From Eledone cirrhosa (Eukaryota), in NCBI GenBank assembly GCA_964016885.1, contig OZ024744.1:115320001-115384000 (forward strand): a DNA stretch of 64,000 nucleotides. Reading direction: 5' to 3'. This document shows positions 3,001-64,000 of the stretch, in pieces (position 1 is the stretch's first letter; the number at the start of each line of letters is the position of its first letter). The notes beneath the pieces were generated by a model. The model searched no databases. It was not told the DNA's origin and saw nothing but the letters and a program-made list of their open reading frames with translations. The position numbers and the translations under genes are program-made.

Positions 3001-3602
3001 TGGTGGTCAATATTACACCTGTTTCTCTTTGGTGGTCAATATTACACCTGTTATACTTTGGTGGTCAATATTACACCTGTTTCTCTTTGGTGGTCAATAT
3101 TACACTTAAGTATCACTTTAGAAGGAGAATCAGGGTGGAGAGAGAGGCACTGCACCCCAGTAAATTTACTGAAAGGTGGGTGAATGAAGCGAAAATGGCC
3201 CGAGTGATTGGGCCTTCTCTGTTTATAAGCCTGTAGGTTGAGGAAGAGAGCAAAAGGAAGAAAGGAGCACTTGCACAACACGCTCCTTGAGTTGAGGGTT
3301 GTTCTATCGACGGGGTATTAAACAACCCATTTGTGGCGCCTCCCCCCTATTGGGGATTTCGATTGTTAAAATTGTTTGTTTGTTTTTATATTTTTTACAC
3401 GACTGTATGTAAAATCCCCGGCATGTCTTTGTATTGTCCCCTTTCTTGTTGCGCCCTTGTGGCTAATAAAGAAATCAATATTACACCTGTTATACTTTGG
3501 TGGTCAATATTACACCTGTTGTACTTTGGTGGTCAATATTACACCTGTTTCACTTTGGTGGTCAATATTACACCTGTTATACTTTGGTGGTCAATATTAC
3601 AC
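1..3602. repeat. 29-bp minisatellite, ~110 copies in window, running off the left edge; consensus TACACCTGTT(AT/TC)ACTTTGG(T/A)GGTCAATAT
   Basis: Direct tandem repeat read from the sequence, interrupted once at 3106-3474. Confidence 0.98.
3106..3474 (+). mobile_element. 5'-truncated L1/Tx1-type LINE 3' end inserted in the 29-bp minisatellite
   Basis: Encodes KYHFRRRIRVEREALHPSKFTERWVNEAKMARV, followed by a 3'UTR ending AATAAAGAAA. Flanked by the 12-bp duplication TCAATATTACAC (3094-3105 and 3475-3486). A near-identical copy lies on the minus strand at ~41330-41691. The clade call is inferred from adjacency to the L1/Tx1-like RT at 40375-41300. Confidence 0.8.
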
Positions 3603-6600
3603 TGGTACACCCAGCTTCAATGTTGCTCAGAAGAAAGAAGCTTGGAAATGTTACTATGAGAGGTTAATGAATGTAGAGAATGAATGGGAGGAAGGGAGAG
3701 TCTACGACTAACTGACCCAACAGAAGGACCAGCTTTTGAAGTTGACAGTTATAGGGCCAAAGAAGCAATCAAGGAGATGAAGAATGATACAGCAAGAGAG
3801 CAACTGAAGCAATTAAGGTGTGTCGGGGATAGTCACTGAGATACTGAGAAAGCATCTGAAGAAGTTGGAGTTAAGACAGTAACCCTCAAAAATCAATCAA
3901 GTAATACATGACGAAGTCATACCCAATGACTAGTCTGACAGTATAATAGTCAATTATTTCTATGGTACAGACATCTCTCACCAACCTAGTCTACCAGATA
4001 ATATAGGACAGAGACATACACAATGACTGGTCTAACAGTATAATAGTCAATTATTTCTATGGTACAGACATCTCTCACCAACATAGTCTACCAGATAATA
4101 TAGGACAGAGACATACACAATGACTGGTCTAACAGTATAATAGTCAATTATTTCTATGGTACAGACATCTCTCACCAACATAGTCTACCAGATAATATAG
4201 GACAGAGACATACACAATGACTGGTCTAACAGTATAATAGTCAATTATTTCTATGGTACAGACATCTCTCACTAACCTAGTCTACCAGATAATATAGGAC
4301 AGAGACATACCCAATGACTGGTCTAACAGTATAATAGTCAATTATTTCTATGGTACAGACATCTCTCACTAACCTAGTCTACCAGATAATATAGGACAGA
4401 GACATACCCAATGACTGGTCTAACAGTATAATAGTCAATTATTTCTATGGTACAGACATCTCTCACTAACCTAGTCTACCAGATAATATAGGACAGAGAC
4501 ATACCCAATGACTGGTCTGACAGTATAATAGTCAATTATTTCTATGGTACAGTCATCTCTCACCAACATAGTCTACCAGATAATATAGGACAGAGACATA
4601 CCCAATGACTGGTCTGACAGTATAATAGTCAATTATTTCTATGGTACAGACATCTCTCACCAACCTAGTCTACCAGATAATATAGGACAGAGACATACAC
4701 AATGACTGGTCTAACAGTATAATAGTCAATTATTTCTATGGTACAGACATCTCTCACCAACATAGCCTACCAGATAATATAGGACAGAGACATACACAAT
4801 GACTGGTCTAACAGTATAATAGTCAATTATTTCTATGGTACAGACATCTCTCACTAACCTAGTCTACCAGATAATATAGGACAGAGACATACCCAATGAC
4901 TGGTCTAACAGTATAATAGTCAATTATTTCTATGGTACAGACATCTCTCACTAACCTAGTCTACCAGATAATATAGGACAGAGACATACCCAATGACTGG
5001 TCTAACAGTATAATAGTCAATTATTTCTATGGTACAGACATCTCTCACTAACCTAGTCTACCAGATAATATAGGACAGAGACATACCCAATGACTGGTCT
5101 AACAGTATAATAGTCAATTATTTCTATGGTACAGACATCTCTCACTAACCTAGTCTACCAGATAATATAGGACAGAGACATACCCAATGACTGGTCTGAC
5201 AGTATAATAGTCAATTATTTCTATGGTACAGTCATCTCTCACCAACATAGTCTACCAGATAATATAGGACAGAGACATACCCAATGACTGGTCTGACAGT
5301 ATAATAGTCAATTATTTCTATGGTACAGACATCTCTCACCAACATAGTCTACCAGATAATATAGGACAGAGACATATCCAATGACTGGTCTAACAGTATA
5401 ATAGTCAATTATTTCTATGGTACAGTCATCTCTCACCAACATAGTCTACCAGATAATATAGGACAGAGACATACCCAATGACTGGTCTGACAGTATAATA
5501 GTCAATTATTTCTATGGTACAGTCATCTCTCACCAACATAGTCTACCAGATAATATAGGACAGAGACATACCCAATGACTGGTCTAACAGTATAATAGTC
5601 AATTATTTCTATGGTACAGACATCTCTCACTAACCTAGTCTACCAGATAATATAGGACAGAGACATACCCAATGACTGGTCTAACAGTATAATAGTCAAT
5701 TATTTCTATGGTACAGTCATCTCTCACCAACATAGTCTACCAGATAATATAGGACAGAGACATACCCAATGACTAGTCTAACAGTATAATAGTCAATTAT
5801 TTCTATGGTACAGTCATCTCTCACCAACATAGTCTACCAGATAATATAGGACAGAGACATACCCAATGACTGGTCTAACAGTAGAATAATCAATTATTTC
5901 TATGGTACAGACATCTCTCACTAACATAGTCTACCAGATAATATAGGACAGAGACATACCCAATGACTGGTCTAACAGTATAATAGTCAATTATTTCTAT
6001 GGTACAGACATCTCTCATTAACATAGTCTACCAGATAATATAGGACAGAGACATACCCAATGACTGGTCTAACAGTATAATAGTCAATTATTTCTATGGT
6101 ACAAACATCTCTCACCAACATAGTCTACCAGATAATATAGGACAGAGACATACCCAATGACTGGTCTAACAGTATAATAGTCAATTATTTCTATGGTACA
6201 GACATCTCTCACCAACATAGTCTACCAGATAATATAGGACAGAGACATACCCAATGACTGGTCTAACAGTACAATAATCAATTATTTCTATGGTACAGAC
6301 ATCTCTCACTAACCTAGTCTACCAGATAATATAGGACAGAGACATACCCAATGACTGGTGCAGCAGTACAATCATAAATTGCTACAAGGTCAAGGGTGAT
6401 GCTTTAGAGAGGAGCAACTATAGAGGAATATAATTAATGGGCCAAATTATGAAAGTGAGAGAAAGAGTTATTGCACTACTAAGAAGAGAAAGAGTTAAAT
6501 TAGATGAGGTGCAGTTTGGTTCCATGCGTGTGTAAAGTATTACAGATTCACTTTTTTTAGTGAAACAACTACATGGGAAGTTTCTAACAATTAGTGTTTG

Positions 6601-6740
6601 TTGATGGGGAGAAAGCATTTCACAGAATAGTTCATCCTGTCATCTGGTGGTCCTAAAAGAACCAAGATGTAGGAGGAATGACTAATGGCAGTAGAGGATC
6701 CATGAGTAGGTAATGAGTTTATTAACAAAGTCAAGGTACA
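3603..6740 (+). mobile_element. Decayed RTE-clade LINE ORF fragment (linker to RT N-terminus), split by an internal 97-bp tandem array
   Basis: The left part translates KKEAWKCYYERLMNVENEWEE. The right part translates PNDWCSSTIINCYKVKGDALERSNYRGI*LMGQIMKVRERVIALLRRERVKLDEVQFG...EKAF, colinear with the RTE RT at 40370-40050. Stops and frameshifts are present. Confidence 0.88.
3920..6358 (+). repeat. 97-bp tandem satellite, ~25 copies, derived from RTE ORF sequence
   Basis: Period 97 (CAATGACTGG at 4021 and 4118). The unit translates LTNIVYQII*DRDIPNDWSNSIIVNYFYG. Confidence 0.95.
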
Positions 6741-6744
6741 AACC

Positions 6745-27700: not shown

Positions 27701-30700
27701 GACACTACCAACTGCACCACGTATACTACCACCTACACTACTGTTTCATCCACTTACACTATTGCAGCACTTATACTACTGTACCAGTTACACTACCACC
27801 TACACTATTGTACCACTTACACTACTGTACGACTTATGCTACCGCCTACACTACTGTTTCACTTACACTACAACCTACAAAACTGTACCACTTACACTAA
27901 GACATACACTACTGTACCACTTACACTATCACCTACACTACTGTACCACCTACACTACTGAACCACTTACACTACCTCCTATACTACTGTACCACTTACA
28001 CTACTACCTACACTACTGTGAAATTTACACAACTACCTACACTACTGTACCACTTACACTACTACCTACACTACTGTACCACTTAAACAACGACCTACAC
28101 TACTGTACCACTTAAACTACCACCTACACTACTGTACCACTTAAACTACCACCTACACTATTGTAGGTGGTTGTGTAGCTGGTAAAATAGTGTAGGTGGT
28201 ATTTTACGTGGTACATCAGTGTAGGTAGTAGTGTAAGTGGAACAGTTGTGTAGGTGGTAATGTAAGTGGTACAGTAGTGTAGGTGGTAGTATAATTGATA
28301 CAGTAGTGTAAGGGGTACTGAAGTGTAGGTGGTAGTATAAGTGTTACAGTAGTGTAGGTGGTAGTGTAAGTGGTACAGTAGTGTAGGTGGTAGTATAAGT
28401 GATACAGTAGTGTAAGGGGTACAGAATTGTAGGTGGTAGTTTAAGTGGTACAGTAGTGTAGGTGGTAGTGTAATTGGTACAGTAGTCTAGGTGGTAGTGT
28501 AAGTGGTACAGTAGTGTAGGTGGTAGTATAAGTGGTACAGTAGTGTAGGTGGTAGTGTAAGTAGTACAGTAGTGTAGGTGGTAGTGTAAGTGGTACAGTA
28601 GTGTAGGTGGTAGTATAGGTGCTACAGTAGTGTAGGTGGTAGTGTAACTGGTACAGTAGTGTATCTGGAAGTGTAAGTCGTACAGTAGTGTAGGTAGTAG
28701 TGTAGGTGGTACTATAAGTTTTACAGTAGTGTAGGTGGTATAATAGTGTAAGGGGTAGAGTAGTGTAGGTGGTAGTATAAGTGGTACAATAGTGTAGGTG
28801 GTAGTAAAAGTGGTACAGTAGTGTAGGTGGGAGTATAAGTGGTACAGCAGTGTAGGTGGTAGTATAAGTGGTACAGTAGTGTAGGTGGTAGTGTAAGTAG
28901 TACAGTAGTGTAGGTGGTAGTGTAAGTGGTACAGTAGTGTAGGTGGTAGTATAGGTGCTACAGTAGTGTAGGTGGTAGTGTATCTGGAAGTGTAAGTCGT
29001 ACAGTAGTGTAGGTAGTAGTGTAGGTGGTACTATAAGTTTTACAGTAGTGTAGGTGGTATAATAGTGTAAGGGGTAGAGTAGTGTAGGTGGTAGTATAAG
29101 TGGTACAATAGTGTAGGTGGTAGTAAAAGTGGTACAGTAGTGTAGGTGGGAGTATAAGTGGTACAGCAGTGTAGGTGGTAGTATAAGTGGTACAGTAGTG
29201 TAGGTGGTAGTGTAAGTAGTATAGTAGTGTAGGTGGTAGTGTAAGTGGTACAGTAGTGTAGGTGGTAGTATAAGTGGTACACTACTGTATCGCCTACACT
29301 ACTGTACCACTTACACTACTATACCACCTACACTACTGTAAAACCTATACTACCACCTACACTACTGTACCACGTATACTACCACCTACACTACTTTACC
29401 CCTTACACTACCATCTACACTACTGTTCAACTTACTCTACCACCTACACTACTGTACCACTTAAACTACCACCTACACTACCACTTACACTACTGTACAA
29501 CTAATACTACCACCTATACTACCACTTACATTACCACCTACTCTATTGTACCACCTCCACTACTGTACCCCTTACACTACTGTACCACTTACACTACCAC
29601 CTACACTACTGTACCGCTTACACTACCACCTACACTACTGTACCACTTACACTACTGTACAACTTATGCTACCGCCTACACTACTGTTTCACTTACACTA
29701 CAACCTACAAAACTGTACCACTTACACTAAGACATACACTACTGTACCACCTACACTACTGAACCACTTACACTACCTCCTATACTACTGAACCACTTAC
29801 ACTACCACCTACACTACTGTGCAATTTACACAACTGTACCACTTACACTACTACCTACACTACTGTACCACTTAAACTACGACCTACACTACTGTACCAC
29901 TTAAACTACCACCTACACTACTGTACCACTTAAACTACCACCTACACTATTGTAGGTGGTTGTGTAGCTGGTACAATAGTGTAGGTGGTATTTTACGTGG
30001 TACATCAGTGTAGGTGGTAGTGTAAGTGGAACAGTTGTGTAGGTGGTAATGTAAGTGGTACAGTAGTGTAGGTGGTAGTATAAGTGATACAGTAGTGTAA
30101 GGGGTACAGAACTGTAGGTGGTAGTATAAGTGGTACAGTAGTGTAGGTGGTAGTGTAATTGGTACAGTAGTCTAGGTGGTAGTGTAAGTGGTACGGTAGT
30201 GTAGGTGGTAGTATAAGTGGTACAGTAGTGTAGGTGGTAGTGTAAGTGGTACAGTAGTGTAGGTGGTAGTATAAGTGGTACAGTAGTGTAAGGGGTACTG
30301 TAGTGTAGGTGGTAGTATAAGTGTTACAGCAGTGTAGGTGGTAGTATAACCGGTACAGTAGTGTAGGTGGTAGTGTAAGTAGTACAGTAGTGTAGGTGGT
30401 AGTGTAAGTGGTACAGTAGTGTAGGTGGTAGTATAGGTGCTACAGTAGTGTAGGTGGTAGTGTAACTGGTACAGTAGTGTATCTGGAAGTGTCAGTCATA
30501 CAGTAGTGTAGGTAGTAGTGTAGGTGGTAGTATAGGTTTTACAGTAGTGTAGGTGGTATAATAGTGTAAGGGATAGAGTAGTGTAGGTGGTAGTATAAGT
30601 GGTACAATAGTGTAGGTGGTAGTATAAGTGGTACAGCAGTGTAGGTGGTAGTATAAGTGGTACAGTAGTGTAGGTGGTAGTGTAAGTAGTATAGTAGTGT

Positions 30701-33380
30701 AGGTGGTAGTGTAAGTGGTACAGTAGTGTAGGTGGTAGTATAAGTGGTACACTACTGTATCGCCTACACTACTGTGCCACTTACACTACTATACCACCTA
30801 CACTACTGTACCAGGTATACTACCACCTACACTACTGTACCACGTATACTACCACCTACACTACTTTACCCCTTACACTACCACCTACACTACTGTTCAA
30901 CTTACTCTACCACCTACACTACTGTACCACTTAAACTACCACCTACACTAACACTTACACTACTGTACCACTAATACTACCACCTATACTACCACTTACA
31001 TTACCACCTACTCTATTGTACCACCTCCACTACTGTACCACTTACACTACTGTACCGCTTACACTACCACCTACACTACTCTACCACTTACATTACCACC
31101 TACACTACTGCACCACTTATACTACCACCTACACTACTGTTCCACTTACACAATTGTACCACTTAAACTACCACCTACACTATTGTAGGTGGTAGTGTAA
31201 GTGGTACAGTAGTGTAGGTAGTAGTATAAGGGGTACAATTGTGTAGGTGGTAGCAAAGGTTTTACAGTAGTGTAGGTGGTAGTATAAGTGGTACAGTAGT
31301 GTAGGTGGTAGTATAAGTGGTACAGTAGTATAGGAGGTAGTGTAAGTGGTACAGTATTGTAGGTAGTAGTATAAGTGGTACAGTAGTGTAGGTAGTAGTA
31401 TAAGTGGTACCGTAGTGTAGGTAGTAGTGTAAGTAGTAAAGTAGTGTAGGTGGTAGTGTAAGTGGTACAGTAGTGTAGGTGGTAGTGTATGTGGTAGTGT
31501 AAGTGGTACAGTAGTGTAGGTGGTAGTGTAAGCCGTACAGTAGTGTAGGTGGTAGTATATGTTTTACAGTAGTGTAGGTGGTATAATAGTGTAAGGGGTA
31601 AAGTAGTGTAGGTGGTAGTATAAGTGGTACAGTAGTGTAGGTGGTAGTATAAGTGGTATAGTAGTGTAGGTGGTAGTGTAAGTGGTACAGTAGTGTAGGT
31701 GGTAATGTAAGTGGTACACTACGATAACCTCTACACTACTGTACCACTTACACTACCACCTCCACTACTGTACCACTAATACTACGACCTATACTATCAC
31801 TTACACTACCATCTACACTACCGTACCATTTACACTAAAAACTACACTCTGTACCACTCATAGTACCACCTACACTACTGTACCACTTACACTACCACCT
31901 ACACTACTGTTCCACTTACTCTACCACCTACACTACAGTACCCCTTACACTACTGTACCACTTACACTACCACCTACACTACTGTACCACTTATACTACC
32001 ACCTACACTACTGTACCACTTAAACTACCACCGACAATATTGTACCACCTACACTACCACTAATACTACCACCTATACTACCACTTACACTACCACCTAC
32101 ACTATTGTACCACCTACACTACTGTACCCCTTAAACTACCACCTACACTACTGTACCACTTATACTACCATCTACACTACTGTACCCCTTACACTACTGT
32201 ACCACTTTCATTACCACCTACACTACAGCACTACATAAACTAACACATACACTACTGTTCCACTTAAACTACCACCTACACTACTGTAGGTGGTAGTGTA
32301 GCTGGTACAATAGTGTAGTTGGTAGATTATATTGTGCTGTAGTGTAGGTGGTAATGTAAGTGGTACAGTAGTGTAGATGGTAGTATAAGTGGTAAATAGT
32401 GTAAGTGGTACAGTAGTGTAGGTGGTAGTGTAATTGGTACAGTAGTGTAGCTGGTAGTGTAAGTGGTAGAGTAGTGTAAGTGGTACAGTAGTGTAGGTGG
32501 TAGTATAAGGGGTACAATTGTGTAGGTGGTAGTATAGGTTTTACAATAGTGTAGGTGGTAGTATAAGTGGTACAGTATTTTAGGAGGTAGTGTAAGTGGT
32601 ACAGTAGTGTAGGTGGTAGTATAAGTGGTACAGTAGTGTAAGGGGTACTGTAGTCTAGGTGGTAGTATAAGTGGTACAGTAGTGTAGGTGGTAGTGTAAG
32701 TAGTACAGTAGTGTAGGTGGTAGTGTAAGTGGTACAGTAATGTAGGTGGTAGTGTAAGTGGTACAGTAGTGTAGGTGGTAGTATAGGTGGTAGTGTAAGT
32801 GGTACAGTAATGTAGGTGGTAGTGTAAATGGTACAGTAATGTAGGTGGCAGTGTAAGTGGTACAGTAGTGTAGGCGGTAGTGTAAGTGGTTCAGTAGTGT
32901 AGGTGGTAGTGTAAGTGGTACAGTAGTGTAGGTGTTAGTGTAAGTGGTACAGTAGTGTAGGTGGTAGTATAAGTGGTACAGTTGTGTAGGTGGTAGTGTA
33001 AGTGGTACACTACTGTAACCCCTACACTACTGTACCACTTACACTACCACCTCCACTACTGTACCACTAATACTACCACCTATACTACCACCTACACTAC
33101 CGTACCATTTACACTACCACCTACACTCTGTTCCACTTATAGTACCACCTACACTACTGTATCACTTACACTACTACTTATACTACCACCTACACTACTG
33201 TACCACTTTTACTACCACCTACACTACTGTACCACTTACACTACAACCTAAACTACTGTACCACTTACACTGCCACCTACACTACTGTACCACTTACACT
33301 ACCACCTACACTACTGTACGACTTATACTACCACCTACACTACTGTACCACCCGTACTACAACCCATACTACCACCCATA
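6745..33380. repeat. ~26.6-kb degenerate CACTAC-rich satellite; core ~29-bp unit CTACTGTACCACTTACACTACCACCTACA built from 9-11 bp sub-repeats; inverted blocks in 28161-33008
   Basis: Read directly from the sequence. Strong strand asymmetry (G-poor plus strand) that flips in four blocks. Confidence 0.97.
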
Positions 33381-33869: not shown

Positions 33870-36800
33870 ATTATGTGAGATAATTATGTGAGATAAAGCT
33901 TTTCCCGTGAAAATATATAGAGTAATGTAAATATTATGTGAGATATTATGTGTGGTAAAGCCTTTACTGTGAAAATACAATAGTAAATATAGAGTAATGT
34001 AAATATTATGTGTGGTAAAGCCTTTACTGTGACAATACAATAGTAAATATAGTGTAATGTAAATGTTATGTGAGGTAAAGCCTTTACTGAGACAATACAA
34101 TAGTAAATATAGAGTAATGTAAATGTTATGTGAGGTAAAGCCTTTACTGGGAAAATACAATAGTATATATAGAGTAATGTAAATGTTATGTGAGATATTA
34201 TGTGAGGTAAAGTCTTTACTGTGAAAATACAATAGTATATAGAGAGTAATGTAAATGTTATGTGAGATATTATGTGAGGTAAAGTCTTTACTGTGAAAAT
34301 ACAATAGTATATATAGAGTAATGTAAATGTTATGTGAGATATTATGTGAGGTAAAGCCTTTACTGTGAAAATACAATAGTATATATAGAGTAATGTAAAT
34401 GTTATGTGAGATATTATGTAAGATAAAGCCTTTACTGTGACAATACAATAGTATATATAGAGTAATGTAAATGTTATGTAAGATATTATGTGAGGTAAAG
34501 TCTTTACTGTGAAAATACAATAGTATATATAGAGTAATGTAAATGTTATGTGAGATATTATGTGAGGTAAAGCCTTTACTGTGACAATACAATAGTATAT
34601 ATAGAGTAATGTAAATGTTATGTAAGATATTATGTGAGGTAAAGTCTTTACTGTGAAAATAAAATAGTATATAGAGAGTAATGTAAATGAAATGTGAGAT
34701 ATTATGTGAGGTAAAGCCTTTACTGTGAAAATACAATAGTATATATAGAGTAATGTAAATGTTATGTGAGAAATTATGTGAGGTAAAGACTTTATTGTGA
34801 AAATACAAAGGTATATTTAGAGTAATGTAAATGTTATGTGAGATATTATGTGAGGTAAAGCCTTTACTGTGAAAATACAATAGTATATATAGAGTAATGT
34901 AAATGTTATGTGAGGTAAAACCTTTACTGGGAAAATACAATAGTATATATAGAGTAATGTAAATGTTATGTGAGGTAAAGCCTTTACTGGGAAAATACAA
35001 TAGTATATAGAGAGTAATGTACATGTTATGTGAGATATTATGTGAGGTAAAGCCTTTACTGTGAAAATACAATAGTATATAGAGAGTAATGTAAATGTTA
35101 TCTGAGGTAAAGCCCTTACTGTAAAAATACAATAGTATATATAGAGCAATGTAAATGTTATGTGAGTTATTATGTGAGGTAAAGACTTTACTGTGAAAAT
35201 ACAATAGTATATAGAGAGCAATGTAAATGTTATGTGAGATATTATATGAGGTAAAGCCTTTACTGTGAAAATACAATAGTATATAGAGAGTAATGTAAAT
35301 GTTATCTGAGGTAAAGCCCTTACTGTGAAAATACAATAGTATATATAGAGTAATGTAAATGTTATGTGAGATATTATGTGAGGTAAAGCCTTTACTGTGA
35401 AAATACAATAGTATATATAGAGTAATGTAAATGTTATGAGATATTATGTGAGGTAAAGCCTTTACTGTGAAAATACAATAGTATATATAGAGTAATGTAA
35501 ATGTTATGTGAGTTATTATGTGAGGTAAAGCTTTTACTGTGAAAATACAATAGTATATAGAGAGTAATGTAAATGTTATGTGAGATATTATGTGAGGTAA
35601 AGCCTTTACTGTGAAAATACAATAGTATATATATAGAGTAGTGTAAATGTTATGTGAGATATTGTGTGAGGTAAAGCCTTTACTGTGAAAATACAATAGT
35701 ATATATAGAGTAATGTAAATGTTATGTGAGGTATTATGTGAGGTAAAGCCTTTACTGTGAAAATACAATAGTATATATAGAGTAATGTAAATGTTATGTG
35801 AGATATTATGTGAGGTAAAGCCTTTACTGTGAAAATACAATAGTATATATAGAGTAATGTAAATGTTATGTGAGATATTATGTGAGGTAAAGCCTTTACT
35901 GTGAAAATACAATAGTATATATAGAGTAATGTAAATGTTATGTGAGATATTATGTGATGTAAAGTCTTTACTGGGAAAATACAATAGTATATATAGAGTA
36001 ATGTAAATGTTATGTGAGATATTATGTGAGGTAAAGCCTTTACTGTGAAAATACAATAGTATATATAGATTAATGTAAATGTTATGAGATATTATGTGAG
36101 GTAAAGCCTTTACCATGAAAATACAATAGTATATATAGAGTAATGTAAATGTTATGTGAGATATTATGTGATGTAAAGTCTTTACTGGGAAAATACAATA
36201 GTATATATAGATTGGCAGTATCGGTAGAGGGTCGGACGCCATGCTTTGACGCATAGAGTTACGGCCCTTGCCATTCTGAGTTCAAATCCCGCCGAGGTTA
36301 ACTTTGCTTTTCATCCTTTCGGGGTCGATAAAATAAAGTACCAGTAATACACTGGGTAATTGCTGGCCTTGTGTCTAACGTAGAAACAAGTATATATAGA
36401 GTAATGTAAATGTTATGTGAGATATTATGTGAGGTAAAGCCTTTACTGTGAAAATACAATAGTATATATAGGGTAATGTAAATGTTATGTGAGATATTAT
36501 GTGAGGTAAACCCTTTACTGTGAAAATACAATAGTATATATAGAGTAATGTAAATGTTATGTGAGATATTATGTGAGGTAAACCCTTTACTGTGAAAATA
36601 CAATAGTATATATAGAGTAATGTAAATGTTATGTGAGATATTGTGTGAGGTAAAGCCTTTACTGTGAAAATACAATAGTATATATAGAGTAATGTAAATG
36701 TTATGTGAGATATTATGTGAGGTAAAGCCTTTACTGTGAAAATACAATAGTATATATAGAGTAATGTAAATGTTATGTGAGATATTGTGTGAGGTAAAGC

Positions 36801-37439: not shown

Positions 37440-37680
37440 CAAACGTGGTCTCTAGCAGAGATGTTGGGGTAGATGAAGTCGATGCAGGTCTAACTGACGT
37501 GGATGATGAATTTGTTAACATTGTTCCACTGCTACCTGAAGATGCTAAAGATACTCCTAAGTTTGTGATAGCACTCTGTTGAGAAGGAGTCATTTGAGTG
37601 GCTGAGGCTTGATTGAAATATGGCACTGGTGGAGAAGGTAACTGATGAAGAATCTCCAGGGAAGGAATTCCTTGGTTATT
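37440..37680 (-). CDS. SYNRG: Synergin gamma coding exon C (241 bp, phase 0 to 1), end of EH region plus Ser/Thr-rich linker
   Basis: TTTCTAG acceptor and GTATGT donor. Translates NNQGIPSLEILHQLPSPPVPYFNQASATQ...TSLLETTF, in frame with exon B. The HQLPSPPVP segment resembles the SYNRG NQFPAAPIP segment (from recall). Confidence 0.82.
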
Positions 37681-37823
37681 CTAGAAACAAATGAAATAAC
37701 AATGACAATATCATCAGAAGAATGTTTCTTTTGTTTTTCACATGTTAACATCATGAGCAACTATAATAATAGCAAATGTGTGTATATTTATATATATATA
37801 TTTATATATATATATATAACATT

Positions 37824-38496: not shown

Positions 38497-40372
38497 CATC
38501 ATCATCATTTAACAGCTATCTTCCACGCTAGCATGGGTTTAGACGGGAATTGTCCTACTTGAGGCAAGATTGGTCGGGTGACCATGTCTCGCTCGTATAG
38601 GACTGCCCGGTAGGTTTTCTATGGCTGGATGCCCTTCCTTATGCCAACCAGTGTGGACTGGGAGGTTTTAACTGTGTTACCTACACGGCCACATTACAGC
38701 GTGGACTGTGTGTTTTTTTGTTGTGACACCTACACAACCTCATTTATTTTGGACTGGATGTTGTGGTGCCAACATAACTTTACAGAGAAAGGGGTGGTGT
38801 TGGTAGGGGTGGGGTGGAGTAGGGGTAGTGGGATGGGGTGTATATTTGGTTAAGAGGTGCCTACTGACTGTAGGTTTCGCTTTGTACATAGGCAAGGCGG
38901 GTCTTCTGTACTACTGCAAGGAACCAAAGATCTCAGTCCAGTGACATTGTCTTACAGAGGTGTAAGTGTGTAAGGTCGGAATTTATCAAATCGTCCCAGG
39001 TTTTTCTGGATCTACCTACTTCCACCAATGTAACTTCCACCAATTTTGATCGCCCTGCACTTTTTTATACAACTGTCGTCTTTCATGTGCATCACGTGAC
39101 CATACCAACGTAGTCTTCTCTCAAGTAAACAGCATCTGATCCCTCTTATTCCTAATTTCTCACTTAGTTCATTTATGCTTTGCCGTTTGCATATATTAAT
39201 TATTGTTACACATCCAACGGAGCATGGATGCTTCGTTCCTCTCCAGTCTGTGCAGATCCTCTGCACACAAAGCCCATGTCTCACTGCCATGTAACATTGC
39301 TGTTCGTATACAGGCATTATACAATCTGCCTTTCATTTTTAGTGAAAAACCTTTAGTGGCCAACAGTGGTTTAAGCTCTCTGAACTTTTTCCATCCCGTT
39401 TTGACTCTGGCTACTGTACTTTCAGAGCACCCTCCACTACTGCTGATTTTGTCACCCAGGTAACGGAAGGTGTCCACTATTTCTATAGAATCATCTGGGC
39501 AATAGAAGGAGCTAGTATCCTGTGGGCACTTGCTACTTATTGCACCTGAGCATCGGCCACATATAAAATCTATGTTCTTAGATAGCTTACCTGTGATCCC
39601 ACTACATCTTTATGTACCCATAGTTTGCATTTGGGACATAATATGGAATTTCTGCCTACTCCTTTCCTACACACTGAGCATGGCCATTTCCCAGAGGGCA
39701 CCTGAGCCCTAGTTTCCTTTCTACATACTAGAACTTTAGTCTTAGACAAGTTAACTTTAAGGCCTTTTGATTCTAGGCCATGCTTCCATGTTTCGAATTT
39801 CTTCTCTAGTTCAGCCATCAATTCAGCTATGAGAGTTAGATCATCAGCCGGTCTTGTTATATCCTGAAGGGCAATAATAAACAGGAGGGGGCTAAGGACA
39901 GAGCCTTGATGAACACCAACTTTTACGCTAAATTCTTCACTATATTCGTTGTTAATTCTAACCTTGCTGACTGTTTCTTTATACATGGCTTGTATAGCTC
40001 TCACAAGCCATTCATCAACACCTAGTTTTCTAAGAGCCCACCAGATAATGGAGTGGGGGACTCTGTCAAAGGCTTTCTCCAAGTCAACAAAAGCTAAGTA
40101 TAGGGGTTTACTTTTAGCTAGGTGCTTCTCCTGTAGTTGTCGTACAAGGAAAAGAGCGTCCGTGGTACTTTTACCTGACACAAACCCAAACTGCATTTCG
40201 TCTAGATCAATTCGCTCTCTGATTAGTTGCGCTATAACTCTTTCTGTGACCTTCATGACCTGGTCAACCAATTTAATGCCTCTATAGTTTCCCCTACCTA
40301 GGGCATCTCCTTTACCCTTGTAGCAGTTAATATTGATTCTGCTATGCCAGTCATTTGGTATGACCCCATTTT
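38497..40372 (-). mobile_element. RTE-clade LINE, 3' half (RT, PHD-like Cys region, C-terminal domain, 3'UTR, (GAT)n tail); inactive
   Basis: Translates IPNDW...NYRGIKL...MQFGF...FVDLEKAFDRV...GVHQGSVLSPLLF. A deletion removes the residues before ADD (QDITRPADDL, no YADD). Contains WPCSVCRKGVGRNSILCPKC, MLHGSETW and RRLRWYGHV, with frameshifts. (CAT)n at 38497-38508. Confidence 0.93.
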
Positions 40373-40374
40373 TG

Positions 40375-41300
40375 CTGTTGTGTATTGCAGCAATCCAGCC
40401 CCTGAACACGGGTCCCAAGCCTGCCGCCTCGAGCACCGCATCCAGGTAACGATGGTCAACCCTATCAAAAGCCTTAGACTGATCCAAGTTGATCAGGGCC
40501 CCACCGAAGTCGGGTTTACACACTACCCTCTCTATGATGTATCGCATGAGGTGGAGGTTGTCGTGTATGGACCTGGTCAACATTGCGCATGTCTGCACTT
40601 CTCCCACCAGGTTTTCGACGACAAGCGCCAGCCTCTTTGCCAACACCTTGGCCAAAATCTGTAACTCTGTGTTGAGCAGAGTTATGGGCCGGAAGTTGCC
40701 TATGTCATCCCCCTTATTCTCGTCCTTCCTGACTAACGTGATTACGCCTTTGGTCACAGAACTGGGAATTCTCCCGTTCTGCTGCTAGTTGCAGTAGACC
40801 GCTTCCAGGAGACTGGAGAACAAGTCCAGCATTGCTCTGTAAAATTTGTAGGGTAGACCGTCGAGACCTGGAGATTTGCGTTTGCCGCATTGGCTCAGCG
40901 CGTCCCCAATCTCAGTGGCCGAAATCGGCCTTTCGCAGAACTTCGCCTCGCTGTCCGAGAGTCGCAGTAGGCCATTGAGGTATGGACCGAAATCCATAGC
41001 CCCTCCCGGCGTGCCGCCCTGCCTGAACAGTTGAGCAAAGTGCCGCTGAAAAGCCGCGCACATTTGCTTCGGCTCACGTATCACGCATCCGTCTTGGTCC
41101 TTCAAAGACCGAATCGTGTACTTGTTGCCACTTTTCGCCTCCGTCACTCGGGCCCAGCTAACAGCTTTGGCTCCCTCATTTCCCAGAGCACGTATTTTGC
41201 TTCTGACTACGCAACCCTCATGCTTTGTGTCGAAGAACAGGTCCAGGGCCGTTCTTGTCGCTAGCATGCTGGCTCATTGCCACTCCTAAGTGCCTCTTCT
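40375..41300 (-). mobile_element. L1/Tx1-clade LINE ORF2 internal fragment (linker plus RT N-terminal motifs)
   Basis: Translates KSPGLDGLPYKFY...GVITLVRKD...NFRPITLLNTELQILAKVLAKRL...QTCA...RSIHDNLHLMR...LDQSKAFDRVDH. GC-richer than the flanks. In-frame stop at 40785-40787. Confidence 0.85.
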
Positions 41301-41329
41301 ACTTTATCTAAGTTTGTGTAACAGATATA

Positions 41330-41835
41330 TTTCTTTATTAGCCACAAGGGCGCACAAGAAAAGGGGACAATACAAAGACATGCCGGGTATTTTACATACA
41401 GTCGTGTAAAAAATATAAAAACAAACAATTACAACAATCGAAATCCCCAATAGGGGGGAGGCGCCACAAATGGGTTGTTTAATACCCTGTCGATAGAACA
41501 ACCCTCAACTCCAGGAGCGTGTTGTGCAAGTGCTCCTTTCTTCCTTTTGCTCTCTTCCTCAACCTACATGATAAACAGAGAAGGCCCAATCACTCGGGCC
41601 ATTTTCGCTTCATTCACCCACCTTTCAGTAAATTTACTGGGGTGCAGTGCCTCTCTCTCCACCCTGATTCTCCTTCTAAAGTGATACTTAAAGAAGGGAA
41701 TCAATTGTTGTCCGGAGAGAAAGGCATCTGTCCTCAGTCCTCTCAACCTCGTCCACCATATAACTTCTTTCACCATAGCCACCGTACAAAGGAAAACTGC
41801 CTCTCTTTCGTTTTTGAAAGAGGCTGGCAGTTTGT
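41330..41835 (-). mobile_element. L1/Tx1-type LINE C-terminus and 3'UTR, same family as the 3106-3474 insert
   Basis: Translates AMVKEVIWWTRLRGL...FFKYHFRRRIRVERE, followed by a 3'UTR ending GGCTAATAAAGAAA. Nearly identical to 3106-3474. Confidence 0.8.
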
Positions 41836-42400
41836 TTAACAGATAGTTAGGTTATTAGCGTCACAGAATTCCAGGATTCTGGAGCCTTCCTCATTTCTAG
41901 TACCAAACCCATAGCCTCCATGGATTCCGTCATAGCCGTCACAATGTTGTCCAATGTGACCATTTAGGTCGCCAGCAATAGCTATGTAGTCACTGTCAGT
42001 TATTTGGGAGGTAGTGAGCATTAACGACTCATAGAATCTGTTTTTTATAACGCCAGGCAGTCCAGATTGGGGTGCATAAGCAGATATTATTGTCACAGTA
42101 GTTCTGTTTAGGACTAGTCTTATTTTAATTATTCTGTCGTTCACTCTATTTACGTCTATTATCTTATCTGCCCACTTTTCTGCTACCATGAATCCTACTC
42201 CACCCAGCCCATTGTCATTTCCCACCCAGAAAAGTTTATAGCATCGTTTTTTTACTCACAATGAATCTAGCAGACCCACCCCTCCACCTAGTCCCTTGAA
42301 CACAACAAACATCAACTTTCTTACGTTCAAGCATCTCTACAACCTCGTTAGAGCGACCTTTTAAGGTGCCTACATTCATGGTACCAACTCTGAAGTTTTG
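41836..42400 (-). mobile_element. RTE-clade LINE apurinic endonuclease (APE) domain fragment
   Basis: Translates GTMNVGTLKGRSNEVVEMLERKKVDVCCVQ...GGVGFMV...IISAYAPQ...IAGDLNGHIG...GYGFGTRNEEGSRILEFC, with a frameshift near 42250. The element may extend 5' to ~43000. Confidence 0.9.
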
Positions 42401-42440
42401 GATTTCGTTGGGTGGGTGGAAGGGATGGGTTGGAGGTGCA

Positions 42441-42465
42441 GGGGGGGGGGGGGGGGGGGGGGGGG
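42441..42465. repeat. G25 homopolymer
   Basis: Read directly; lies just 5' of the RTE endonuclease coding region (poly-C on the element strand). Confidence 0.95.
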
Positions 42466-43427
42466 TTTGTTAGCCATCCGTGTCTGAAGTAAAGAGGAGT
42501 CCTTGCATTCTTGTCCGGCAACAGGAGGTGAATTTATCTTTATCTTTGATATTGTCATTGAGTGTTCACATTCTTCAAACTCTCCAAATCCCGTTGTCCA
42601 TTTAGCATATCGAAGAGGGAGTAATAGCCGAGGCGGTGGTTTTGTGCAAGACATTGGGGAGAGAAACATATTATAAGCCGCTGAATTATGATTGGACCAA
42701 ATACTAATGGTGGCGTGTGGGGGAGGGGGAGGGAAATGGGAAGGTTAACGAGCAGATTAATTTTTCTGAGGGTCCTACAGATTCGACCATAATTATGAGA
42801 AGTTTAACGAGAAGTTTAATATAAATACCAATAGGTAAATGGACCAGGGATGTTGGAGAGACAGGAAAATGAAGTGAAAATATATTACATTTCTCAACAC
42901 GACAATTCAGCAACAGTAAGAATTCAACAGATTCTGAGTTCATCAACTCACGACAGATTTATTTTATACTTGCAGAGAGAGAGAGAGGAGGAGAGAGAAC
43001 GTGAAAATGCAGCACAAGAGTGAAAATATTTCTTTAATAAACTCCAATGAATTTAAAACAAAGATTATTACACAAGACATAATACATAATTGGGATATGT
43101 GAAACAGTTTTGATTTTCTTGTATCACAGTCATAAAAGACATATACTTATATGACATAGGCATGTGTAGTATAGTTGACATTCCTAGAAAGAATTGGCTG
43201 TCCCTTAATCAGATTCTCACATGCCAGGACAGACTATCATCTCCACCAATGGAAAATGAAAGAGCCCCCAGCAGTGCTGCATGATGTTCGGTTTTAGCCC
43301 CCTCAGTGGTGGCTTCAAGGCAATCCATAATACTACAAATGACGCCTTAGTCTGGCTTGCCAATCTCGGTATGTCTCTATTGTGCATATGTCATACGACA
43401 AGAAGTGTAGTTAGTGTATATATATCG

Positions 43428-44610: not shown

Positions 44611-44792
44611 CGGTGTATTGGCAGTATCAGTCGAGGATCGGACGCCATGCTTTCTAGCATAGTTACGTCCCTTTACGGTCCGAGTTCAAATCCTGTTGAG
44701 GTTAACTTTGCCTTTCATCCTTACGGAGTTGATAAAATAAAGTACCAGTAATCTACTGGGTATTTGCTGGCCTTGTTCCAAAAGTAGAAACA
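44611..44792 (+). mobile_element. tRNA-derived SINE, same family as 36212-36388
   Basis: A-box TGGCAGTATCAGT and B-box GAGTTCAAATCC. 11-bp TSD ATTATATTAGA at 44600-44610 and 44793-44803. Confidence 0.88.
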
Positions 44793-44803
44793 ATTATATT
44801 AGA

Positions 44804-46843: not shown

Positions 46844-47024
46844 GCTGAGGAAGCTTCATAAACTTGTCTATAGACATGTGGGATTTGGTCATCTTCTAAG
46901 TAACACCAAGAAGGAAGTGTCTTGAATGGTCCCTGTGGATGCTGAGAAACTGTTGGTGTTGTACTTCCACTGTCTGGTGTTGTACATTGAGGCTGCAGGT
47001 TGGAACTATTCTCATTCACCTCAT
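46844..47024 (-). CDS. SYNRG: Synergin gamma coding exon A (181 bp, phase 1 to 2), just upstream of the EH-like domain
   Basis: AG acceptor at 47025-47026, GTAAGT donor at 46838-46843. Translates EVNENSSNLQPQCTT...KTLPSWCYLEDDQIPHVYRQVYEASS, similar to the vertebrate synergin gamma segment recalled as PPWIYNESLVPDAYKKILE. Splices in frame to the next exon. Confidence 0.85.
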
Positions 47025-47184
47025 CTGTAAATACAACACAATATATTTAACACAATAAAACTAGCAACTCAATCAACTCTTATACTTTTTTATTTTTTTA
47101 GTGATTTAAATCATGCTCTAACCCCGTCCCCTGCTCCATCTCACCATCTCCCGGTCCAGCTGAAGACACAATAAAGACCATCAT

Positions 47185-48279
47185 TCTAGTATCATGATAA
47201 AATACACCCAGTACACTCTGTAAAGTGGTAGTGTTGATGTCATGATATAATACACCCAGTACACTCTGTACTGTGGTAGCGTTGGTGTCACGATACAATA
47301 CACCCAGTACACTCTGTAAAGTGGTAGTGCTGGTGTCATGATAAAATACACCCAGTACACTCTGTAAAGTGGTAGTGTTGGTGTCATGATAAAATACACC
47401 CTGTACACTCTGTAATGTGGTAGTGTTGGTGTCATGATAAAATACACCCGATATACTCTGTAATGTGGTAGTGTTGGTGTCATGATATAATACACCCAGT
47501 ACACTCTGTAAAGTGGTAGTGTTGGTGTCATGATAAAATACACCCAGTACACTCTGTAAAGTGGTAGTTTTGGTGTCATGATAAAATACACCCAGTACAC
47601 TCTGTAAAGTGGTAGTGCTGGTGTCATGATAAAATACATCCAGTAAACTCTGTAATGTGGTAGTGTTGGTGTCACGATACAATACACCCAGTACACTCTG
47701 ATAAGTGGTAGTGTTGGTGTCATGATATAATACACCCAGTACACTCTGTAAAGTGGTAGTGTTGGTGTCATGATATAATACACCCAGTACACTCTGTAAA
47801 GTGGTAGTGTTGGTGTCATGATAAAATACACCCAGTAAACTCTGTAAAGTGGTAGTGTTGGTGTCATGATATAGTACACCCAGTACACTCTGTAAAGTGG
47901 TAGTGTTGGTGTCATGATAAAATACACCCGATATACTCTGTAAAGTGGTAGTGTTGCTGTAATGATATAATACAATCAGTACACTCTGTAATATGGTAGT
48001 GTCGGGGTGTCATGATAAAATACACCAATACACTCCGTAAAGTGGTAGTGTTAGTGCCATGATATAATACACCCAGTACACTCTGTAAAGTGGTAGTAGT
48101 GGTGTCATGATCTAATACACCCAGTACAATCCGTAAATGGGTAGTGTTGGTGTCATGATAGAATACACCTCTTAAACTCTGTAATGTGGTAGTGTTAGTG
48201 CCATGATATAATAAAGCCAGTAAACTCTGTGAAGTGGTAGTGTTGGTGTCATGATAAATTAGATCAAATACACTCTGCA
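47185..48279 (+). repeat. 48-bp tandem satellite, ~22 copies, derived from the RTE 3'UTR
   Basis: Unit GGTGTCATGATAAAATACACCCAGTACACTCTGTAAAGTGGTAGTGTT aligns with the RTE 3'UTR GGTGACACGGTAAAAAGGCTCCCAGTCCACACTGTAAATGTGGTTGGTGTT (reverse complement of 43578-43628; also 45968-46018). Confidence 0.92.
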
Positions 48280-51200
48280 AATATAACCTCTACATTAACT
48301 ACCGATGTTTCACTACCATTTAACATTACATCAGATGTCCATTGAAACATGTTAGCTTCATTTCTCTCCAGTCTCTATATAACCTCTACATTAACTATCA
48401 TATCTCACCACCATGTAACATTACATCAAATGTCCATTGAAACATGTTAGCTTCATTTCTCTCCAGTCTCTATATAACCTCTACATTAACTACCCATGTC
48501 TCACTACCATGTAACATTACATCACAGGGCCATTAAAACATGTTTGCTTCATTTCTCTCCAGTCTCTATATAACCTCTACATTAACTATACATGTCTCAC
48601 TACCATGTAACATTACATCGCAGGGACATTGAAACATGCTAGCTTCATTTATCTCCAGTCTCTGTATAACCTCTACATTAACTACCCATATGTCACTACC
48701 ATGTAACATTACATCAGATGTCCATTGTAACATGTTAGCTTCATGTCTCTCCAGTCTCTATATAACCTCTACATTAACTACCCATGTCTCACTACCATGT
48801 AACATTACATCAGATGTCCATTGAAACATGCTGGCTTCATTTCTCTCCAGTCTCTATATAACCTCTACATTAACTACCCATGTCTCACTACCATGTAATA
48901 TTACATCACATGTCCATTGAAACATGCTAGCTTCATGTCTCTCCAGTCTCTGTATAACCTCTACATTAACTATCCATGTCTCACTACCATGTAATATTAC
49001 ATCACATGTCCATTGAAACATGCTAGCTTCATTTCTCTCCAGTATCTATATAACCTCTACATTAACTACCCATGTCTAACTACCATGTAACATTACATCA
49101 GATGTCCATTGAAACATGTTAGCTTCATTTCTCTCCAGTCTCTATATAACCTCTACATTAATTACCCATGTCTCACTACCATGTAACATTACATCACAGG
49201 GCCATTGAAACATGCTAGCTTCATGTCTCTCCAGTCTCTATATAAACTCTACATTAACTACCCATGTCTCACTACCATGTAACATTACATCAGATGTCCA
49301 TTGACACATGTTAGCTTCATTTCTCTCCAGTCTCTATATAACCTCTACAGTAACTACCCATGTCTCACTACCATGTAACATTACATCAAATGTCCATTGA
49401 AACATGCTAGCTTCATTTCTCTCCAGTCTGTGTATAACCTCTACATTAACTACCATGTCTCACTACCATGTAACATTACGTCAGATGTCCATTGAAACAT
49501 GCTAGCTTCATTTCTCTCTAGTCTCTATATAACTTCAACATTAACTACCCATGTCTCACTACCATGTAACACTACATCACATGTCCATTGAAACATGCTA
49601 GCTACATGTCTCTCCAGTATCTATATAACCTCTACATTAACTACCCATATCTCACTACCATGTAACATTACATCAGATGTCCATTGAAACATGCTAGGTT
49701 CATATCTCTCAAGTCTCTATATAACCTCTACATTAACTACCCATGTCTCACTACCATGTAACATTGCATCAGATGTCCATTGAAACATGCTAGCTTCATT
49801 TCTCTCTAGTCTCTATAAAACCTCTACATTAACTACCCATGTCTCACTAACATGTAACATTACATCAGACGTCCATTGAAACAAAGTAACTTCATTTCTC
49901 TCCAGTCTCTATATAACCTCTACATTAACTACCCATGTCTCACTACCATGTAACATTACATCAGATGTCCATTGAAACATGCTAGCTTCATGTCTCTCCA
50001 GTCTCTATATAACCTCTACATTAACTACCCATGTCTCACTACCATGTAACATTACGTCAGATGTCCATTGAAACATGCTAGCTTCATTTCTATCTTGTCT
50101 CTCTATAACCTCTACATTAACTACACATATCTTACTACCATGTAACATTACATCAGATGTCCATTGAAACATGTTAGCTTCATTTATCTCCAGTCTCTAT
50201 GTAACCTCTACATTAACTACCCATGTCTCACTACCATGTAACATTACATCAGATGTCCATTGTAACATGTTAGCTTCATGTCTCTCCAGTCTCTATTTAA
50301 CCTCTACATTAACTACCCATGTCTCACTACCATGTAACATTACATCAGATGTCCATTGAAACATACTAGCTTCATGTCTCTCCAGTCTCTATATAACCTC
50401 TACATTAACTACCATGTCTCACTACCATGTAACATTACATCAGTTGTTCATTGAAACATGTTAACTTCATGTCTCTCCAGTCTCTATATAACCTCTACAT
50501 TAACTACCCATGTCTCACTACCATGTAACATTACATCAGATGTCCATTGAAACATGCTAGCTTCATGTCTCTCCAGTCTCTATATAACCTCTACAGTAAC
50601 TACCATGTCTCACTACCATGTAACATTGCATCAGATGTCCATTGAAACATGCTAGCATCATTTCTCTCCAGTCTCTCCGTATGACCTCTACACTAACTTC
50701 CTCTGTCTCACTTTCATGTAACATTACATCAGATGTCCATTGAAACATGCTAGGTTCATTTCTCTCCAGTCTCTATATAACCTCTACATTAACTACCCAT
50801 GTCTCACTACCATGTAACATTATATCAGATGTCCATTGAAACATGCTAGCTTCATTTCTCTCCAGTCTCTATATAACCTCTACAGTAACTACCCACGTCT
50901 CACTACCATGTCACATTACATAAGATGTCCATTGAAACATGCTAGCTTCATTTATCTCCAGTCCTATATAACCTCTACATTAACTACCCATGTCTCACTA
51001 CCATGTAACATTACATCAGATGTCCATTGTAACATGTTAGCTTCATGTCTCTCCAGTCTCTATATAACCTCTAGATTAACTACCCATGTCTCACTACCAT
51101 GTAACATTACATCAGATGTCCATTGAAACATGCTAGCATCATTTCTCTCCAGTCTCTCCATATGACCTCTACACTAACTTCCTCTGTCTCACTTCCATGT

Positions 51201-63200: not shown

Positions 63201-64000
63201 TCACAGGGCCATTGAAGCATGCTAGCTTCATTTCTCTCCAGTCTCTATATAACCTCTACATTAACTACCCATGTCTCACTACCATGTAACACTACATCAC
63301 AGGGCCATTGAAACATGCTAGCTTCATTTCTCTCCAGTCTCTATATAACCTCTACATTAACTACCCATGTCTCAGTACCATGTAACATTACATCAGATGT
63401 CTATTGAAACATGCTAGCTTCATTTCTATCTTGTCTCTATATAACCTCTACATTAACTACCCATGTCTCACTACCATGTAACATTACATCACAGGGCCAT
63501 TGAAACATGCAAGCTTCATTTCTCTCCAATCTCTATATAACCTCTACATTAACTACCCATGTCTCACTACCATGTAACATTACATCACAGGGCCATTGAA
63601 ACATGTTAGCTTCATTTCTCTCCAGTCTCTATATAACCTCTACACTAACTACCCATGTCTCACTACCAGGTAACATTACATTACAGGGCCATTGAAACAT
63701 GCTAGCTTCATTTCTCTCCAGTCTCTATATAACCTCTACATTAACTACCCATGTCTCACTACCATGTAACATTACATCAGATGTCCATTGAAACATGCTA
63801 GCTTCATGTCTCTCCAGTCTCTATATAACCTCTACATTAACTACCCATGTCTCACTACCATGTAACATTACATTACAAGGCCATTGAAACATGCTAGCTT
63901 CATATCTCTCCAGTCTCTGTATAACCTCTACAGTAACTACCCATGTCTCACTACCATGTAACATTACATTACAGGGACATTGAAACATGCTAGCTTCAAT
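48280..64000 (-). repeat. 96-bp tandem satellite, >160 copies, running off the right edge, derived from the RTE ORF C-terminal domain
   Basis: Period 96 with occasional 95. The minus strand translates MLHGSETWVVNVEVI*RLERNEASMFQWTSDV, versus RTE MLHGSETWALCAEDLRRLERNEACMLRWMCNS at 45373-45468. Confidence 0.97.

Follow-up and report, generated by a model that had tools for sequence, protein, structure and literature searches.

A 97-bp tandem array embedded in register in the remnant of an RTE-type LINE reading frame in Eledone cirrhosa

How does a satellite-like array begin inside a coding sequence, and can its history still be read from the locus? Satellite origins are usually erased. The window analysed here, a 64,000-nucleotide stretch of the Eledone cirrhosa genome (assembly GCA_964016885.1, contig OZ024744.1, positions 115,320,001 to 115,384,000 of the forward strand), contains a 97-bp segment repeated in tandem within a decayed LINE ORF, where the parent reading frame provides a coordinate system and half-units at the array edges preserve the founder copies. 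The question is whether this array arose in place or came from another copy of the element, and when its founding and its amplification occurred.

The array in its parent reading frame

TRF places the array at 3918-6359 (+) with a period of 97 bp, 25.2 copies, 97% matches and 0% indels, in agreement with the roughly 25-fold amplification noticed in a sequence-only reading of this DNA. That reading called it a satellite; the tandem array is real, but at 2.4 kb it has the size of a minisatellite, and, as the single 97-bp array in the window, it fits a classical satellite less well than the 96-bp array described below (>15.7 kb). A coding role is ruled out by a frame check, in which the longest stop-to-stop frame inside the array reaches 45 aa; the unit length is not divisible by 3. 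A structured-RNA role finds no support in folding z-scores, which gave no sign of a structured RNA or a hairpin-prone unit in 6/6 stretches tested (−0.88 to 0.81; 0.42 and 0.81 for the unit as single-stranded DNA), or in an Rfam search of the window, which returned 0 matches. The array does not code for protein and is most likely neutral.

The LINE remnant around the array runs from 3603 to ~6744, has ~0.7 kb outside the array and is bounded by two different, unrelated 29-bp satellites. Its left part (3603-3917, +) belongs to the linker just upstream of the reverse transcriptase (RT) of an RTE-type ORF, matches aa 27-119 of the homologue P0002 (score 154), carries about five frameshifts and adjoins the first 29-bp satellite; a shuffle test of the left flank against P0009 gave 0/30. 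The right part (6360-6744, +), from the N-terminal part of the RT, corresponds to aa 116-224 of P0002, contains two stops and a 17-bp deletion near 6587, and adjoins the second 29-bp satellite. Its homology is clear up to ~6700 and weak past that point, and a Pfam search with the 80-aa right flank found no family. The parent LINE ORF of the sequence-only reading is borne out as an RTE-type ORF, although what survives is this ~0.7-kb remnant and no whole element. A displaced duplicate of ~30 bp in the left flank (3746-3820), with the copies roughly 45 bp apart, is a second local duplication in the remnant.

Each flank was aligned separately, with a frameshift-aware aligner, to P0002 and three further homologues. 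The left flank (3628-3930) maps to aa 27-119 and the right flank (6344-6653) to aa 116-224 of P0002, and the overlap of the two is a common IPND. The start of the right flank is identical in 3/3 further homologues; the left flank reaches the motif in two of the three and ends short in P0009. Both flanks map without a gap onto one homologue, and the departure from colinearity that had been named as fatal to the claim of in-place duplication was not found. Translations of the boundaries reproduce the entry into the array at HDEVIPND, followed by a stop, and the exit at IPNDWCSSTIINCYKVKGDALERSNYRGI, likewise followed by a stop. Excision of 25 × 97 bp would leave a single V-I-P-N-D-W.

The two switch points are sharp, and both lie on one core of 17 bp, which spans the codons IPNDW. 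Its copy at the left boundary (3918-3934, +) has one change, which turns the Trp codon into a stop, and its copy at the right boundary (6343-6359, +) is identical to the majority unit. The locus thereby shows the features of a TE-derived tandem repeat formed in situ: head-to-tail copies of a contiguous TE segment, in register with colinear flanks. This in-register colinearity rules out random insertion; two different RTE copies could still have been joined by exchange between homologous arrays. A 6-bp stem without mismatches, closed by a loop of 5 bases, lies across the left boundary and core (3915-3931); stems like it occur every few hundred bases in the RTE copies of the window, and it is a weak lead.

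A paralogous RTE copy on the minus strand, extending from the RT to the 3′ tail (38500-40367, with an endonuclease part at ~41830-42409), served as the DNA outgroup. Its identity to the right flank is 70.7% over 239 bp, and its RT resumes at 40367. The pieces of this copy correspond to aa 46-238 and 559-1044 of P0009 (RVT_1, E 2.6e-28), and with it as query 120 longer homologues were obtained. Of these, 45 are at least 900 aa long, and many contain endonuclease, RT and PHD Pfam families (PF03372 with PF00078); the best named matches, at 56-64% identity, are from a cnidarian, a lancelet and a clam. The features of the RTE clade are present, namely a single ORF of ~1,000-1,100 aa with an AP-type endonuclease and an RT, and a short tandem-repeat 3′ tail; (GAT)n tails are found on 3/3 paralogous 3′ ends, the remnant itself being without a 3′ end. 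From these motifs we take the element to be an RTE, a name that no homologue match bore.

The closest homologues, P0193 (80%) and P0121 (75%), and P0030 (61%) all carry bacterial names in NCBI and are likely animal DNA contaminating bacterial assemblies. No closer protein relatives were found at E ≤ 1e-15 among 19 candidates, and a representative search, in which the motif was covered in 241 of 389 proteins, found none closer than P0193. A pattern search of genome contigs for a DNA outgroup gave 50 matches, of which 0 were confirmed. The paralogous region itself (38500-42470, −) was once a near-full-length RTE copy, in which pieces of another LINE have taken the place of aa ~238-559. Within it, a 404-codon open frame (39570-40784, −) joins the N-terminal part of the RT of a different LINE, presumably L1/Tx1-like, to the RTE RT without a change of frame. 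The junction is no more than about 15 bp away from the same IPNDW core on which the array begins and ends; this closeness may be a coincidence or may mark a fragile site.

The unit aligns over 29 codons, ungapped, with aa 103-131 of P0002 and is therefore one contiguous ORF segment. It spans both sides of the IPNDW motif, across which it reads LTNIVYQII, a stop, and then DRDIPNDWSNSTIINYFYG. It comprises 32 codons plus one base of the ORF, circularly permuted in the TRF phase. In its true phase the locus has 26 units, and homogenisation never reached the outer half at either end: on the left, unit positions 60-97 plus one additional base (3879-3917, +; 23/38 sites identical), and on the right, unit positions 18-49 (6360-6391, +; 18/32 identical). 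Anchored shuffles gave 2/1000 for the left flank against the unit end, 3/1000 for the right flank against the unit start and 0/1000 for the first half of the unit against the paralogue; protein-level shuffle tests gave 4/200 for the left flank and 0/200 for the right. When the 97-bp dimer was aligned as DNA without anchoring, its score of 47.5 stayed below the shuffled maximum of 55.5 (n = 30), and the homology of the unit therefore rests on register and on the protein level. A reading of the 97-mer as two ~50-bp subunits is rejected, as its two halves fall on neighbouring residues of the ORF. The original junction can be placed only to unit positions ~50-60, and no microhomology from the founding event could be seen there, which counts against the local origin proposed below.

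Founder divergence and turnover of the units

The two founder copies were compared by setting the left half-unit, core and first half of the unit against the second half of the unit, core and right half-unit. They differ at 29/87 sites (33%), a JC distance of 0.44 or about 0.22 per lineage. The corresponding distance is 0.03 between units and 0.40 between the right flank and the paralogue. The units are far more homogeneous than the flanks, as had been claimed. The recent expansion or homogenisation inferred earlier holds for the amplification or homogenisation of the units, but the founding duplication is old. Judged from these distances, the seed duplication would be of the same order of age as the decay of the element, and the homogeneity of the units dates only the last turnover. 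The seed duplication and the amplification can be dated each on its own and differ about 14-fold in age; assuming that the rate reported for octopus, 0.0036 per million years (PMC13282606), held here, they would be roughly 60 and 4 million years old.

Units merely 3% apart might suggest that the whole event was recent, a piece of an already decayed copy having been duplicated and then expanded. Such an event should leave a near-perfect match between unit and half-units, but outside the core 29/70 sites of the founder copies differ, and we find this explanation barely tenable. The distances also bear on a seed inherited from the parent element, in which a two-copy duplication was already present and was retrotransposed, amplification alone being local. 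With 0.44 between founders and 0.40 between flank and paralogue, duplication and insertion have the same age within error, and tandem repeats borne by TEs are on record (LTR12, PMC3389668; Ogre, PMC7004042). A 97-bp duplication breaks the frame, however, and a parent carrying it would need to move in trans; we consider an inherited seed quite improbable. The paralogue is broken just upstream of the core.

Among the 25 full units the mean pairwise difference is 3.0% (range 0-6.2%), with 12 variable positions and 16 distinct sequences. Adjacent units are more alike than chance (lag 1, p = 0.007), units seven apart have a mean distance of 2.06 (permutation p = 0.002, for a lag picked after viewing 13 lags), and the overall trend of distance with position is weak (Mantel p = 0.06). 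A 7-unit block duplication (4215-5343, +) is visible as an exact repeat at 4215-4664 and 4894-5343, which at 450 bp is the longest exact internal repeat of the array. These data can be set against an assembly artefact in copy number or homogeneity. Six of the 25 units are identical in sequence, and the array is known here from an assembled sequence, both of which would fit such an artefact; 16 distinct units, ordered haplotypes, the lack of indels and an exact repeat no longer than 450 bp speak against it and make it highly improbable.

The last full unit (6246-6342, +) is the most distant of all, with 4.1 mean differences, and carries two flank-type alleles, at unit positions 27 and 32. Each of its two changes within positions 18-49 has the flank base, an agreement with a chance of about 0.02-0.05, and each restores the P0193 residue, giving the reading TIIN found in the flank and in P0193; unit 21 has one of them too. 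We read these alleles as ancestral, left at the edge after newer alleles had nearly swept the array. Divergent terminal monomers are described as a known result of unequal crossover, an edge effect (PMC5139131, PMC5615363). The 7-unit block copy and the flank alleles of the last unit point to turnover in place, and the array shows the likeness of neighbours, the multi-unit duplication and the divergent ends that characterise concerted evolution.

Proposed origin of the array

We propose, as the probable origin, an early duplication of a 97-bp stretch of the ORF that was amplified much later, at its present site, through slippage or unequal exchange. First, about 32 codons would have been duplicated head to tail, once, at or soon after insertion of the element, through repair or replication slippage or possibly through reverse transcription. 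The two copies, which are observed at about 67% identity, would then have decayed separately. The 17-bp core would by then have been their longest remaining perfect match, and misalignment there may have amplified the interval between the cores; this would place both array ends on the core and leave the outer half-units old. Multi-unit unequal exchanges may have kept the array turning over since then. They would account for the pattern seen in it, that is, for the 7-unit block copy and for near-fixed new variants that are missing from the last unit.

A start at the core is favoured by the position of both array ends on it and by its conservation: the core agrees with the paralogue at 15/17 sites, the rest of the unit at 18/32 (Fisher p = 0.03, post hoc). 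Two calculations count against a start at the core: a perfect 17-bp run at 66% identity occurs in 2.5% of simulated pairs, and two independent boundaries would fall within 17 bp with a chance of about 0.3 by arithmetic. Stasis followed by a burst is therefore only slightly favoured over continuous turnover from the start.

Local duplication with later homogenisation, as put forward in the sequence-only reading, is the best-supported account of the colinear flanks, but colinearity alone leaves room for a homology-directed import. Here the array would have been born in another RTE copy and have arrived either through ectopic conversion or as a circular multimer, integrated by one crossover within the 17-bp core. 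Import predicts an array in the identical register, bounded by one core at both ends, and the comparison with P0193 is relevant to it. The flanks match this homologue at 14/22 codons and the majority unit at 8/22; nine codons match in the flank only and three in the unit only (p = 0.15), and the unit and flanks therefore decayed separately. A change common to unit and flank relative to P0193 is found at 1/22 codons, and the shared residue, Asp, is common in the family (43/187). In DNA the changes are split 7:4 between unit and flanks (p = 0.55). Outside the core the unit agrees with the adjacent flank at 18/32 sites and with the paralogue 34 kb away at 18/32.

We counted three of these results against a local origin. 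The unit and flank have a change in common at one codon only, of a residue frequent in the family. The unit tends to have more changes than the flanks, as an older import would, although the excess (7:4 in DNA, 9:3 in protein) is non-significant, and it is no closer to its own flank than to the paralogue. On the other side, the unit adjoining the right flank has ancestral-type alleles, which a fresh import does not predict; queries with the array ends found the unit nowhere else in the window; and a crossover within 17 bp between sequences that are 67% identical would be rare. We regard import as unlikely and retain early duplication with later amplification in place.

Other RTE-derived arrays and relation to known systems

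The 97-bp array is one of three RTE-born arrays in the window. The sequence-only reading saw this one but missed the other two. A 48-bp array of 22.7 copies (47192-48281, −) is an expansion of a short repeat inside the RTE 3′UTR, to which it aligns with a score of 85.5 against a shuffled maximum of 43. A 96-bp array of at least 164 copies (48281-63998, −) runs off the window; its unit corresponds to 32 contiguous ORF codons C-terminal to the RT, and no parent flank is visible. Compared without gaps, the majority 96-bp unit is identical to one RTE copy of the window at 67/96 sites and to another at 66/96. The 138 full-length units are 8% apart, and block repeats of 1438, 2397 and 2975 bp correspond to 15, 25 and 31 units. 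The 48-bp and 96-bp arrays adjoin directly, in the order and strand of the element, with the intervening sequence absent. The three RTE-derived arrays occupy 19,250 bp (30% of the window), and tandem arrays in all make up about 81%. An RTE origin is unsupported for the two 29-bp arrays (31.5 against a shuffled maximum of 32.5, and 32 against 39; n = 30 each) and for a 72-bp array, whose score lies at the edge of the shuffles (50.5 against 49.5, n = 30).

In-situ expanded tandem repeats derived from TEs are already well documented (PMC3389668). For the human genome, Ahmed and Liang report 7,276 TE-derived tandem repeats, 601 of them from L1, among which are a 52-bp AluJo segment repeated 17 times and 300 cases with 5-20-bp flanking direct repeats (PMC3389668). 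In their stated view, initiation occurs near retrotransposition and slow in-situ expansion follows. The 97-bp array resembles these cases as part of a TE copy repeated in place, apparently by local duplication. It differs from them in its parent, an RTE-type LINE ORF of a non-human animal, and in its outer half-units, which date seed (JC 0.44) and amplification (0.03) separately.

LINE ORF2-related satellites include PROsat of Phodopus, Pvc20 of a seal, the chicken HinfI/CR1 repeat and the common cetacean satellite (PMC9659126). Like the 97-bp array, these have monomers with homology to the coding or 3′ sequence of LINEs. In that review they are recognised through the similarity of the monomer, whereas the 97-bp array still lies in register within its parent. 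RTE is not mentioned in the main text of the review. In Lathyrus, one Ogre retrotransposon family seeds nine satellites from repeats in its 3′UTR (Vondrak et al., PMC7004042). The likeness lies in one family giving rise to several satellites by stages that run from short arrays inside the element to long ones, a route that the 48-bp array shares. However, Ogre is an LTR element with pre-existing 3′UTR repeats, while the 97-bp and 96-bp arrays derive from non-repetitive LINE coding sequence.

As described for Octopus vulgaris, RTE-2_OV has a single ORF of ~1,100 aa with an endonuclease, an RT and a zinc-binding motif, and a 3′ microsatellite (PMC9115989, PMC10294476). The homologues and the paralogue in the window share this layout, a likeness in the described features. 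RTE-BovB is reported as expanded in cephalopods (PMC10294476, PMC9068888), and RTE families as recently active in Octopus vulgaris (PMC13282606). No RTE-derived arrays are described in the available text of these cephalopod accounts (PMC10294476, PMC9068888, PMC13282606), and our literature search, which covered titles and the beginnings of abstracts, found no paper on arrays derived from an RTE ORF in cephalopods.

The value of the 97-bp array is that of a clean, datable example. With three arrays of RTE origin, the 64 kb may offer a natural series in which the beginnings of minisatellites can be tested. Arrays of this kind can also lead repeat annotation to overstate the number of LINEs. A broader idea, which we put forward as doubtful, is that one RTE family acts as a serial satellite factory, with two-copy ORF seeds of ~96-97 bp formed at about the time of insertion, a dormant decay by a third and a burst at the last perfect microhomology. 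If this were true, the window would hold a series consisting of a 25-copy array in its parent, a parentless array of >160 copies with higher-order blocks of 15-31 units, and a 3′UTR array, and the lag from seed to satellite would be directly measurable genome-wide.

Several further features lie in and between the arrays of the window. The first 29-bp satellite contains an insert of about 370 bp (3106-3474) with a 12-bp target duplication (3094-3105, 3475-3486); it is 96% identical, inverted, to 41329-41691 and is likely the 3′ end of another LINE. The 72-bp array contains a SINE-like insert (36212-36388), also with a 12-bp target duplication, a second copy of which lies at 44617-44803 (84% identical); the array is more uniform to the right of the insert (97% against 85% matches). 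A C-rich 29-bp satellite at 28154-33352 flips strand repeatedly, in blocks of 0.5-1.1 kb. Two short non-repetitive stretches, at 37460-37685 and 46870-47030, look like minus-strand exons of a host gene.
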